64,000 nt of DNA from Bacteroidota bacterium (GCA_016718825.1 JADKCL010000026.1:7819-71818); one strand, 5' to 3'. Counted from the stretch's first letter, positions 30,817-33,630 are shown. Program-made: numbers and translations. Notes: a model not told the origin generated them from the sequence alone.

Positions 30817-32373
30817 ATGAAACCAAAACTGTCGTTCATTGCACTATTGCTATTTGTTTTTGTCTTTTCTGCATGTGAGAAGGAGGTCCCCCCCCCCCAT
30901 TCTGATATGAATGGCAATTCGCCATCTATGTCGGCGGATTATTCCCCAAATCCTGACCAGCGCCTTACCACTGATCGAAGTTTGCAAATCTTGGCGCTGG
31001 GATTTACAGACTTGGTTGCTGATTCACAATTTGTGGATGCTCTTTATCGCACCATGCCTTGCGACGGATGGTTAGGCCTAGAAGAATTTGGAAGATATTT
31101 CAATGCTGCCACAGTCGATCGAAACCTTTACGCCGAAATGAATCTGGCGATCCGAAAGTATTTGAAGGACAATACCAATCGCGACTATGTGACACCGGCC
31201 ATCCAGCAATTGAAGATCGATGGGGTGCAATATGTCCCAGACATCACAATTCCCTATTTTGGAGAGACAAATCTCTTAATACCACCGATTGTGGCAGCTG
31301 GGGTAGATGATGAAAATGATCGCCTCACTGGTTATTTGGTGGCAGGGCGAGACATTGCTTTTTACGCTTCGTCCACGAGTCCATTACAAATGTTAACGAT
31401 TGAATCCGATCTTGTGGGTACCACCTATCAAGCACCAATGTTTGAGGGCGTTTCATCTGTTTTTTCAACTCTTCGCGCTCAATCGATTAGCTCAGAGGAG
31501 GCCAGAAATAGACCTATGATTGTGATTGCAGTGGGAGATGGACCAGACCCCAATCGAGAAAATGATCCATGCTACCAGTCGAATGGAGGTGGCGGCTGGA
31601 CGGGAGGCACAGGAAGTGGTGGAACTAGTGGGAGCGGGATCGGGTGCACCGTTGGTGCTGATGAGGACTGTGCTTATAAAACTGGACCGGTTAATTATCC
31701 GATGTGCATTGGTGGATGTGATCCAATTTTCACAAATACAAACCAATGTTTATCTACCGTATCCTTTGAATCAGGTCAATTATTTGCACCTCACAATAGC
31801 GGTTCCAATACATCCAAAGTCCGGTACATGATCAGCAAAATGAAAAATAATGGACTTAACGAACTGATGGGGGTTGTTGACAACCCAGCACCAAATGTCA
31901 TAGTTTCCAACCTTGGGTTGAACAAATGCCGAATCAAATTAGAAGATAGAAACTCTACAAATACAAGCCTTAATGCTGTAGTAAATTATACTCAACACAC
32001 TCTTCTACAAGAAATTTGCCAATGGAGCCCAACTTGGGGAGGCAATTCATTTGTGCTCGCTACAGGGTTTGATATTAATGCAAATGGAGAAGCCTTTGGA
32101 AACGCAACATCAACTTTTTGGATTTACAATCGGTACTGGATTACCATATACGAAGATGATTGGTGGGTCACGAATCCCAAGGAAATACCTGCTCCTGGCA
32201 TTACATATTTAACAAATGAAGAATACCACCAAATAAGGGCAACGGCATCAACTGATCTGTATTACAACGGATTCCTGAACCTTGATCTTGTAGGTTGTAC
32301 TGCCAATTTTTGTGATCCAATAAGCCTTAATGATGCCTATCCTGGAAATTTTGTTTTAAGGGTGCATGACTAA
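30817..32373 (+). CDS. Lipoprotein of unknown family (518 aa) with a 5' poly-C tract
   Basis: Signal/lipobox 'MKPKLSFIALLLFVFVFSAC'. Gly-rich linker 'GGGGWTGGTGSGGTSGSG'. Cys-rich middle. AT-richer than flanking genes. Confidence 0.8.
   Translation: MKPKLSFIALLLFVFVFSACEKEVPPPHSDMNGNSPSMSADYSPNPDQRLTTDRSLQILALGFTDLVADSQFVDALYRTMPCDGWLGLEEFGRYFNAATVDRNLYAEMNLAIRKYLKDNTNRDYVTPAIQQLKIDGVQYVPDITIPYFGETNLLIPPIVAAGVDDENDRLTGYLVAGRDIAFYASSTSPLQMLTIESDLVGTTYQAPMFEGVSSVFSTLRAQSISSEEARNRPMIVIAVGDGPDPNRENDPCYQSNGGGGWTGGTGSGGTSGSGIGCTVGADEDCAYKTGPVNYPMCIGGCDPIFTNTNQCLSTVSFESGQLFAPHNSGSNTSKVRYMISKMKNNGLNELMGVVDNPAPNVIVSNLGLNKCRIKLEDRNSTNTSLNAVVNYTQHTLLQEICQWSPTWGGNSFVLATGFDINANGEAFGNATSTFWIYNRYWITIYEDDWWVTNPKEIPAPGITYLTNEEYHQIRATASTDLYYNGFLNLDLVGCTANFCDPISLNDAYPGNFVLRVHD
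30888..30898 (+). repeat. C11 homopolymer inside the lipoprotein CDS, 6 codons after the lipobox Cys
   Basis: Read directly: gtc ccc ccc ccc cat (VPPPH). C10 gives att ctg ata TGA. C12 gives cca ttc TGA. Confidence 0.95.
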
Positions 32374-32446
32374 TTTAGAGAAAGAGTTGAGTCCCCAATT
32401 ATGAAAATGGGGACTCAGCTTGCATTTTTGGATTAACTGGATGTAA

Positions 32447-33040
32447 ATGTTCCGAAAAACAATAATTCTTCAAATATTCACCATTGGGTTCCTAATACCC
32501 ATTTTCTCTAACGCGCAATTAGTCCCCGAAAGCAATCCCAACAAATTCTCCCTGGAGCTCGGTATACTCTCCGCGCCAACAAGAGAAATATGGGGTAGCC
32601 TTTCCGTAGGCCTGAAGTTGCAACGACAATACTTCAGTTTGGCATTACTTGCGCCTGAATTACGAGGTGCATATCACAGATGGTCTTTAGCCAATGGGTA
32701 CGAACTTTCCTCGAAAATTGCATTTGGAGTGGGCCATCGGTTTGTCCTATGGGAGAAGAATAGGTGGTCAATGGAAACAAATTCTGTTTTTCAAATTCAA
32801 AACATCAACATTTACGAAACTGACGTCATTACCCCCGTCTCAATGACAAAAATCGGCAACTATCCGAGACTACAATTGAGTACAGGTTTGGGATTAAGGT
32901 TCTCCTTCCTCAAACATTTTAATCTATTCTATTCAGTTCGTTATGGGATTGCAAGAGGGAATTTCTTTATTGTATATCCCCAAGTTAACCACTGGCGTGC
33001 CAGTATCTGTTCAGATATCGCATTTGGGATAAGACTATGA
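32447..33040 (+). CDS. Small secreted beta-barrel-like protein, paralogue 1 (197 aa)
   Basis: Signal peptide 'MFRKTIILQIFTIGFLIPIFSNAQ'. Alternating hydrophobic beta pattern. Ends 'DIAFGIRL'. Confidence 0.7.
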   Translation: MFRKTIILQIFTIGFLIPIFSNAQLVPESNPNKFSLELGILSAPTREIWGSLSVGLKLQRQYFSLALLAPELRGAYHRWSLANGYELSSKIAFGVGHRFVLWEKNRWSMETNSVFQIQNINIYETDVITPVSMTKIGNYPRLQLSTGLGLRFSFLKHFNLFYSVRYGIARGNFFIVYPQVNHWRASICSDIAFGIRL

Positions 33041-33630
33041 ACGGAATCCTCGCAACCCTTATTTCGATCCTGATCACAGCAAATTTGGCAATGGCGCAAG
33101 AAAATCTGGTCGTTCCAACCCGCCCAAAGTTGCTCTTGACCACAGGAATATGGGTTTCCAATTCCAATAATTATTGGATACGTATGACGACTAGTCTGGA
33201 AACCAAGCGAATGTCATTTGGAATTGGCGTACACCGCCTACTGCGTTTTGCACCCTCTTATTCCAATTTGTTGGTTGATACCGAAATTATCCCTTGGCAA
33301 TTGGGCTTTGATCTCTGCTACCGGTACTATTTTGCGCTAGAAAAGGCAAAACTGAGACCCTATTTCCTTGCCTCCCTCAGCCTTTCTGGGGCCAATCAAA
33401 TGCAGAACCCAAGGTATCATGTGAATCCCAAGCATCTAGGGACTTGGAAATATCTAGAACCGACCATAGGCTATGGCCTCAGTTGGGAGATTTGGGAATT
33501 ATTCTCGCTTGGTGCTCAAGTCGGCGGTGGACTCCAAATGTTTCAATACCACCCGAAAGGACAAAAACCTGATCCTGGGTACTGGCCTGGAGGCTTCATG
33601 GGGTCAATCATGCTGGAAAAGCGCTTTTGA
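33037..33630 (+). CDS. Small secreted beta-barrel-like protein, paralogue 2 (197 aa)
   Basis: ATGA overlap with paralogue 1. Signal peptide 'MNGILATLISILITANLAMAQ'. Ends 'SIMLEKRF' (terminal Phe). Same length and similar motif order as paralogue 1. Confidence 0.7.
   Translation: MNGILATLISILITANLAMAQENLVVPTRPKLLLTTGIWVSNSNNYWIRMTTSLETKRMSFGIGVHRLLRFAPSYSNLLVDTEIIPWQLGFDLCYRYYFALEKAKLRPYFLASLSLSGANQMQNPRYHVNPKHLGTWKYLEPTIGYGLSWEIWELFSLGAQVGGGLQMFQYHPKGQKPDPGYWPGGFMGSIMLEKRF

Follow-up and report, generated by a model that had tools for sequence, protein, structure and literature searches.

We analysed a 64,000-nt stretch of DNA from a Bacteroidota bacterium (GCA_016718825.1 JADKCL010000026.1:7819-71818), referred to below as the window, and focused on a trio of adjacent plus-strand genes within it. 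These genes encode a 518-aa lipoprotein (30817-32373) and two Sec-exported, beta-rich proteins of 197 aa each, which we call B1 (32447-33040) and B2 (33037-33630). B1 is basic, ends in ..DIAFGIRL and is a candidate 8-stranded outer-membrane (OM) barrel; B2 is probably its distant paralogue. The coordinates and lengths of the three open reading frames (ORFs) agree with a first-pass annotation of the window, as does the ATGA overlap between the B1 and B2 genes (33037-33040). This overlap suggests that B1 and B2 are translationally coupled and so would be made in roughly equal amounts. No further copies of the trio genes were found in the window.

The trio appears to be transcribed on its own. 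The Bacteroides/Bacteroidetes promoter consensus is TTTG-N17-21-TAnnTTTG, and its sole full match in the window (TTTG, 20 nt, TAAGTTTG; 30756-30787, plus strand) lies 30 nt 5' of the lipoprotein ATG, in line with the single promoter-like element first noted there. A scan for the sigma-70 consensus found sites no more often than in shuffled sequence, and none 5' of the trio. On the other side of the upstream spacer, the giant DUF4157 gene (23991-29972) ends at a bidirectional terminator hairpin (29984-30024) with 19-nt arms that are 95% complementary and a predicted fold of -35.7 kcal/mol (z = -9.2). An Rfam scan of 29.5-34.5 kb returned one spurious miRNA match, on this hairpin. Given a promoter-like site of its own and a strong terminator between it and the giant gene, the trio is a separate transcription unit, as its earlier description as self-contained had implied. 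Between the lipoprotein and B1 genes lies a plus-strand stem-loop (32384-32421; RNA fold -27.4 kcal/mol, z = -4.9) that is possibly an attenuator after gene 1 or an mRNA-stability element. A hairpin of unrelated sequence occupies the equivalent position (z = -3.4) in L001, a 47.8-kb ENA contig with an orthologous trio, such that both lineages checked have one.

By eye, the N-terminus of the lipoprotein (MKPKLSFIALLLFVFVFSA-C20) reads as a signal peptide followed by a lipobox (..VFSA-C20), and the lipobox cysteine is aligned with ..G-C or ..S-C in all six relatives. It is followed by a Pro/Ser tether, an N-domain (about residues 50-250), a Gly-rich linker (255-276), a Cys-rich module (277-311) and a beta-rich C-domain with the conserved motifs YWITIYEDDWW and IRATA. 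In all full-length family members, the lipobox Cys-x-K-E leads into a low-complexity tether, and a glycine-rich linker then joins an N-domain of about 200 aa to a beta-rich C-domain with the near-invariant motifs W..(I/L)(Y/F)E(D/H/Y)D(W/D)(W/Y) and (I/F)RA(T/K). Ten cysteines are conserved among the close homologues, including those of the Cys-rich module, which argues for an oxidising, extracytoplasmic compartment. In Bacteroidota, lipoproteins are exported to the surface by a route that depends on a lipoprotein export signal (LES) (PMC5080379), for which we required an acidic motif of the K-(D/E)2, Q-A-(D/E)2 or S-D-D-D-D type at positions +2 to +6 after the cysteine. The lipoprotein in the window continues C-E-K-E-V-P, and its relatives C-K-K-E-T, C-R-K-E-V, C-S-K-E-T and C-K-K-E-D; K(+3) and E(+4) are thus conserved at LES positions across the family, with the second acidic residue mostly missing.

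The lipoprotein had been described as belonging to no recognised family, and searches of Pfam, NCBIfam, PADLOC, PHROGs and PDB sequences bear this out. More broadly, Pfam, NCBIfam, PADLOC and PHROGs gave no match for any trio protein, for the orthologues or for the partners of remote relatives, and PDB sequence-profile searches with the trio proteins gave no significant match. An AlphaFold2 model of the lipoprotein built on a 7-sequence alignment had a pLDDT (predicted local confidence) of 45.8, with only the helical N-terminal part (about residues 50-140) reaching 66-83. Foldseek against the PDB returned no match to this model at E <= 0.001, a result that we treat as uninformative; the weak C-domain matches, none significant, were to C2- or CBM-type beta-sandwiches, including the perforin C2 domain.

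The family is also extremely rare. When a profile of three close lipoprotein homologues was run with full HMMER against 1.84 billion representative proteins, seven matched at E <= 1e-3: four close relatives or fragments and three remote ones (P0021, P0023 and P0024). Word-indexed homologue searches returned two relatives for the lipoprotein, none for B1 and two for B2. The rarity of B1 and B2 is less certain than that of the lipoprotein because these word-indexed searches missed the B1 orthologue of L001. Two scans of genome contigs found nothing, and the sole match in a metagenome scan was a same-species contig. A further lipoprotein homologue was seen on an ENA contig of 3.9x coverage (L028), where one frame is full-length except for an in-frame TGA (..VIVIAP*DNPTRE..), which reflects either a pseudogene or a low-coverage error.

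B1 and B2 had been called twins on the basis of their equal length and shared motif order. The lengths are indeed equal, and the motif pairs GLKLQRQYFSLAL/SLETKRMSFGIGV and TGLGLRFSF/IGYGLSWEI fall in columns that hhalign pairs, but the similarity is weak, and the two are remote paralogues at most. Direct BLASTP of B1 against B2 gave E = 0.15, whereas hhalign gave 74% probability (E = 2.8e-5) over 166 collinear columns. Across species, BLASTP of B1 from one lineage against B2 from the other found 22-23% identity over 165-177 aa (E = 0.005-0.01), and control alignments of the B1 and B2 profiles to unrelated secreted beta-rich proteins stayed below 0.5% probability. Together, the hhalign result, the cross-species matches and the low-scoring controls make distant paralogy likely.

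Both proteins begin with Sec signal peptides that are followed by no hydrophobic helix, contain 14-17% aromatic residues and have a mean hydropathy near 0. About eight long amphipathic segments (strands of 10-13 residues) are predicted in each, and their alternating hydrophobicity exceeds that of shuffled sequences (z = 2-4) and equals or exceeds that of an informal OmpX control. The signal peptides and this enrichment support the earlier view of B1 and B2 as exported beta-rich proteins. Counting back from the terminal L of B1 (IAFGIRL), positions 1, 3, 5 and 7 are hydrophobic; in both proteins the chain ends in F or L with a hydrophobic dyad pattern that is conserved between orthologues. The B2 tail, PKGQKPDPxYWPGGFMGxIMLEKRF, spans a predicted Pro/Gly-rich loop and the last strand, and all but two of its positions are identical between orthologues that are 49% identical overall, which suggests that the loop and strand may form a binding interface. 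Mature proteins of about 175 aa are typical of 8-stranded OM proteins (OMPs). On these sequence features and a low-confidence predicted model, we infer that B1 and B2 are small OM beta-barrels of about eight strands. One B2 variant, on a single 1196-bp ENA contig (P0006), apparently lacks about 54 internal residues corresponding to predicted strands 3-5.

The arrangement of the trio, with the lipoprotein gene followed by a spacer of about 70 nt, B1, a 4-nt overlap and B2, is conserved in three lineages. In L001 the lipoprotein, B1 and B2 are 46, 42 and 49% identical to those in the window, and a JGI contig carries genes for 510 and 184 aa and a third that is cut; across the three lineages the trio proteins are 42-50% identical. 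A B2 orthologue, P0007, is 49% identical. The L001 trio is flanked by PAS histidine kinase and response regulator genes on one side and by an Lnb gene on the other. The latter, a lipoprotein N-acyltransferase (Lnb_N / 5TMH_Lnb) gene on the minus strand (L001 12736-13932), is convergent with B2 and lies 10 nt past its end, which may be coincidence. The loci of the remote lipoprotein relatives are organised differently. P0021 is the product of a solitary gene flanked by a ParDE pair and a two-component system, the P0023 gene is succeeded after 16 nt by one whose product is secreted, beta-rich and at least 270 aa long, and P0024 has a gene for a secreted 223-aa protein downstream, with methyltransferase, EAD11/Sel1 and PD-(D/E)xK genes around it. 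Alignment of B1 and B2 with the secreted proteins downstream of P0023 and P0024 by hhalign revealed no relation.

The base composition of the trio suggests a foreign origin. This had been proposed from spot counts of G+C in single 60-nt lines, which were numerically right (48, 33 and 40% against 62%) but, with a standard deviation of 7% for lines of this length, carry no weight alone. The deviation holds at the level of genes and is milder than the spot counts implied: the trio has 43.7% G+C compared with 49.7% for the window, and G+C at third codon positions (GC3) is 0.38, 0.42 and 0.50 for the lipoprotein, B1 and B2, compared with a gene mean of 0.57 (z = -3.3, -2.5 and -1.3). No other 2.8-kb block in the window is as low in GC or deviates as far in tetranucleotide usage. 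In L001 the lipoprotein has a GC3 of 0.374 against 0.680 for its neighbours (z = -9.5), with B1 and B2 at z = -3.1 and -4.9, whereas the remote relatives occur in hosts of 32-34% GC and match their host in composition. Neighbouring genes differ in every genome with a trio-family locus, and there is no synteny. From the deviant GC3 in the window and L001, the native composition in relatives of 32-34% GC and the differing neighbours, the simplest reading is that the trio was imported from low-GC Bacteroidota, probably independently into two mid-GC lineages. Plasmid, phage and IMG/VR collections contained no match to it. The spacers on either side (29973-30816 and 33631-34137) had been described as ORF-poor, and neither holds a supported gene; the right-hand one contains a plus-strand relic of a YhcG-type PD-(D/E)xK nuclease, corresponding to about 40 C-terminal codons (33659-33772; positions 115-153 of 157 in Pfam YhcG_C). 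The match (E = 3e-5) is below the gathering score because it is partial, and the relic, which starts just past the end of B2, is decayed DNA that borders the cassette on the right.

To assess diversity, the window was compared with 17 independent contigs of the same species from different assemblies and samples. All 17 carry the cassette in the same haplotype, as does every contig found through the flanking TPR gene. A 4.6-kb block (29648-34254) extends from the last part of the giant gene through the trio, with the spacer on either side of it, to the 3' end of the TPR gene and shows three singleton differences in the 17 contigs: a one-base deletion in a C tract, described below, and single-nucleotide polymorphisms (SNPs) at 33111 and 33631. 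Flanking DNA is 0.3-1.4% divergent; 20.8-24 kb and 34.1-42 kb each contain 16-25 segregating sites per kb. The comparisons of greatest length show no SNP over 25968-34254, a gap about nine times as long as any other in the 21 kb compared, and the most divergent strain (1.44% in the flank) has no differences from the start of its contig at 28868 to 34367. The left edge of the SNP-free region depends on the strain (25967, 27551 or 29647), and the right edge is mostly 34255 or 34368 (35783 in three); the part common to all has the trio with its spacers at its centre. These observations suggest a recent gene-specific sweep or the recombinational spread of one haplotype. Separately, 12 SNPs of contig L009 crowd together within the giant gene (27398-27551) and resemble a small recombination patch.

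Just past the lipobox, at codons 25-28 of the lipoprotein gene, a run of 11 cytosines (C11; 30888-30898, plus strand) encodes the PPP of V-P-P-P-H; it is the sole homopolymer of 10 nt or more in the window. Tract lengths of C9, C10, C12 and C13 are each computed to truncate the lipoprotein to 28-31 aa. Among 15 assembled copies, 14 have C11 with the full 518-aa product, and one (contig L003) has C10 with a gene call of 481 aa, the length that a frameshift should give. No further copies came from a pattern search for tract-length variants in JGI metagenome contigs. Lipoprotein calls of 181 aa and 95 aa in some contigs do not reflect real disruptions: these contigs begin within the gene, which is otherwise identical, and the short calls are artefacts of the gene caller. 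C11 is placed as in a contingency locus, and on weak evidence, with one variant, it is a candidate slipped-strand ON/OFF switch.

We give even weight to the alternative that C11 is a mere codon run for the proline tether and that C10 is an assembly or sequencing error. The tract is in frame at C11 in 14 of 15 copies, the lone C10 comes from a 7.5x SPAdes contig that ends 83 nt from the tract and may be misassembled there, and a literature search gave no paper that joins homopolymeric tract, phase variation, Bacteroidetes and lipoprotein. However, a C run of 11 nt is very unlikely to arise by chance in 64 kb (0.02 expected for independent, identically distributed bases), and this one occupies the classic site in the 5' coding region just past the signal peptide. 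Proline can be encoded without a homopolymer, relatives of the lipoprotein lack the tract and two more assemblies break 20-85 nt from it. Poly-G/C tracts are known from phase-variable surface genes of Neisseria, Haemophilus, Campylobacter and Helicobacter, and phase variation in Bacteroidota is mostly known to occur by DNA inversion. The trio resembles such simple-sequence contingency loci in having a homopolymer of at least 9 nt in the 5' coding region of an envelope gene, a truncation caused by a one-base change and one length variant, but differs in that the variant is 1 of 15, comes from weak data and is known from assembled contigs alone.

Our tentative proposal, to which we assign appreciably less than an even chance, is that the trio is a horizontally acquired accessory OM lipoprotein cassette with a heteromeric barrel partner. 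The trio would be transcribed from its own single promoter, with possible attenuation after gene 1. The product of gene 1 would be a lipid-anchored OM protein with a C-terminal head, rich in disulphides and beta structure, borne on the flexible Pro/Ser tether and the Gly-rich linker. The next two genes would be co-translated distant paralogues encoding small OM barrels that jointly form the heteromeric membrane partner of the lipoprotein, as an anchor or docking site. Slippage of C11 would switch the lipoprotein off, with C10 or C12 leaving a peptide of about 30 aa. The cassette would have originated in low-GC Bacteroidota, after which a nearly invariant haplotype spread recently among strains of the species. 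The gene layout, the lack of family matches, the recurring trio arrangement, the deviant composition, the missing linkage to DUF4157, the SNP-poor block and a single C10 copy are observed, whereas barrel fold, physical complex, surface exposure, phase switching and biological role are all inferred. Co-evolving partners are argued for by the similar divergence of all three proteins and by the lack of stand-alone B1 or B2 homologues in searches of limited sensitivity.

Several observations weigh against this proposal, in addition to the poor contig behind the C10 copy. The export signal is just x-K-E and thus partial; KE alone is a weak signal in Capnocytophaga canimorsus, giving 16% surface-positive cells (PMC5080379), so surface exposure of the lipoprotein is possible. 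P0021 has no secreted partner downstream and the partners of P0023 and P0024 are unlike B1 and B2; the barrels are therefore not obligatory for the wider lipoprotein family. No integrase, tRNA or flanking or att-like repeats mark a mobile element in the window. The selected target is ambiguous because the low-diversity block may reach to about 25968 and so include the 3' two-thirds of the giant gene. As for the barrels, the B2 C-terminus (IMLEKRF) has a terminal F but an imperfect beta-signal dyad. An AlphaFold2 model of B2 from a 5-sequence alignment predicts 8 strands at a pLDDT of only 40.8, and in Foldseek against the PDB it had no match at E <= 0.001 (best E > 0.1, TM-score <= 0.26), which we again treat as uninformative. 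Among these non-significant matches were up-and-down barrels, such as avidins, FapF, OmpA, Ail, NspA and OprH. Finally, no OMP family in Pfam or NCBIfam, including OmpA_membrane, OMP_b-brl, OMP_b-brl_2, OmpW, DUF3575 and others, matched B1, B2 or their L001 orthologues at E <= 1.

The absence of an OMP family match would also be expected if B1 and B2 were soluble periplasmic or secreted beta-proteins, such as lipocalin- or avidin-like barrels, binding proteins or inhibitors, and the trio formed no membrane complex. We consider this unlikely, though more than a formality. The best non-significant matches include avidins and a lipocalin, the most conserved segments of B2 are Pro/Gly-rich loops, its last strand is not a clean beta-signal and both proteins have a net charge of +7 to +9. 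Weighing on the other side are the long amphipathic strands, with an alternation more marked than in the informal OmpX control, and the aromatic content and near-zero hydropathy. The conserved C-terminal pattern and a mature size usual for 8-stranded OMPs likewise speak for membrane barrels.

The setting of a tethered lipoprotein next to putative OMP genes also recalls Bacteroidales secreted antimicrobial proteins (BSAPs). These are surface lipoproteins of Bacteroidota with a disordered N-terminal tether and C-terminal receptor-binding beta-domains, and their genes adjoin genes for Sec-exported putative barrels, which are co-acquired replacements for the targeted beta-barrels (PMC4999547, PMC12853789). 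By analogy, the lipoprotein would be a new type of antibacterial toxin, carried on the cell surface or on vesicles, and would bind a receptor through its C-terminal beta-domain; the barrels would be the producer's resistant version of the targeted OM protein, acquired with the toxin. The evidence for horizontal transfer fits such a cassette, as genes of BSAP loci also look co-acquired and carry a strain-level population signature (PMC4999547, PMC12853789), and sweep-like fixation is the expected outcome for a competitive weapon. A downstream partner that is variable or absent in remote relatives fits target-specific partners better than a fixed machine, and the non-significant C-domain matches include a perforin domain. 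Nevertheless, neither MACPF (PF01823) nor any other toxin domain was found in the lipoprotein or its remote relatives in Pfam at E <= 1, and the barrels are small (about 175 aa when mature), paired and downstream of the lipoprotein gene. B1 and B2 are seemingly as rare as the lipoprotein, with no stand-alone 'sensitive' orthologues in limited-sensitivity searches, and all three proteins diverge to a similar extent, as co-evolving partners would. Among the 17 contigs, a small sample, there was no cassette-free strain and no sensitive or alternative allele at the locus. We therefore regard a BSAP-like weapon as distinctly improbable.

A bolder version of our own proposal is slightly more doubtful again: a horizontally mobile envelope system in which a heteromeric platform of two paralogous mini-barrels serves a disulphide-rich, poly-C-switched lipoprotein, all of new families, and which strong selection has recently driven through the population. 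Its role might, for instance, be to mask a phage receptor, to act in defence, or to pair a lipoprotein toxin lacking MACPF with a resistance factor.

The first-pass annotation had also suggested a functional tie between the trio and its giant neighbour. The giant has an eCIS_core (DUF4157) match at residues 88-153, and its remaining ~1800 aa match nothing in Pfam, PADLOC or PHROGs. An N-terminal DUF4157 followed by a long linker marks toxins associated with extracellular contractile injection systems (eCIS), whose immunity mechanisms are largely unknown (PMC8213781), and the giant fits this class. In the window it is accompanied by TetR and MFS genes, with BamA, holA, TonB-dependent receptor and TPR genes farther upstream. 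The trio as a receptor, immunity factor or export partner of this protein would accord with their adjacency in every strain of the species, with the recent inheritance of both as one haplotype in several strains that are SNP-free from about 25968 in the giant gene through the trio, and with the gap in knowledge of immunity to DUF4157-class toxins. The tie does not hold elsewhere, however: the L001 trio, the one informative independent genome, has no DUF4157 gene (PF13699) within 10 kb on either side, and none occurs at the P0021, P0023 and P0024 loci. The first-pass annotation had named a lack of co-occurrence with DUF4157 genes as refuting its idea, and for the link to the giant this is what we see, in one informative independent genome. 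The two are set apart by the strong terminator, a spacer of 844 bp and the trio's own promoter-like site, and their composition deviates in opposite directions (GC3 of 0.66 for the giant and 0.38-0.50 for the trio). Envelope proteins exported by Sec and lipoprotein routes would not be the expected immunity for a cytoplasmically loaded cargo, and hitchhiking explains the shared low-diversity block as well as a functional link does. A dedicated partnership with the giant is thus very improbable, and membership of the trio in an eCIS operon was rejected, as the window contains no eCIS structural genes.

Type V pilus loci, Slam and BSAP membership were rejected for lack of profile matches. Slam is a single large barrel that carries a periplasmic domain at its N-terminus. 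The Slam/DUF560 systems of Proteobacteria do offer a parallel, in that the gene for a lipoprotein (TbpB, fHbp or HphA) is reportedly linked to that of an OM beta-barrel that serves as its handler or partner (PMC5449769, PMC9090332). B1 and B2, in contrast, are two ~175-aa proteins with no DUF560 match, and no barrel gene accompanies P0021, a relative of the lipoprotein. Small 8-stranded OM barrels (OmpX/Ail, the OmpA N-domain, OmpW, NspA and OprH) resemble B1 and B2 in size, Sec signal peptide, about eight amphipathic strands, abundant aromatic residues and a hydrophobic or aromatic C-terminus. Unlike these barrels, B1 and B2 have no family match at E <= 1 and no significant structural match, and their loops are the most conserved parts instead of the most variable.

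Lipoproteins paired with cognate barrels, contingency tracts and imported cassettes are already known as general themes. What is new is that the three proteins lie outside described families and that the lipoprotein family is among the rarest that can be documented with the tools used. If our proposal holds, the trio would extend the envelope repertoire of Bacteroidota by a novel, very rare kind of pair, a lipoprotein and small OM barrels, and it combines a low-GC import, a near-clonal haplotype and a well-placed homopolymer, three features seldom documented jointly in the phylum. A near-clonal haplotype in strains otherwise about 1% apart resembles a gene-specific sweep in an uncultured environmental population and makes the trio a candidate locus under strong recent selection by phage, predators or competitors. 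The tempting link to an eCIS-type giant toxin is removed as unsupported. The present value of these findings is moderate: the population-genetic signal is real and clean, the structural claims come from weak models and evidence for the switch is thin.

Several minor features surround the trio. In the upstream spacer, two tandem plus-strand units of about 45 nt (30511-30599; repeat families D1/D5/I3) lie 220-300 nt 5' of the lipoprotein start codon, and each opens with the palindrome GACTCCnnnGGAGTC. This palindrome occurs twice in the whole window, both times here (0.11 expected), and the units are possibly an operator pair or a repeat-element relic. DNA of the upstream spacer is not conserved between the window and L001. 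The 842-bp spacer 5' of the L001 trio contains, by eye, an apparent direct repeat of about 130 bp in two copies (L001 9444-9790) that opens GACCAAC(A/T)GGTC(A/G)AGGTCATACCAAG.. and is unrelated in sequence to the spacer in the window. The right-hand spacer also contains an inverted repeat (33991-34047) with 27-nt arms and a 12-bp core that is perfect (AATTGTGCAACC/GGTTGCACAATT); situated some 90 nt downstream of the minus-strand TPR gene, it is likely the terminator of that gene. Farther downstream, a minus-strand gene for a type IX secretion system cargo protein (Por_Secre_tail; 34964-36581) is split into ORFs of 280 aa and 268 aa by a 1-nt indel near 35803-35808. In other strains it is a single gene of 537/538 aa, and the split reflects either a frameshift particular to this strain or a misassembly of the window.

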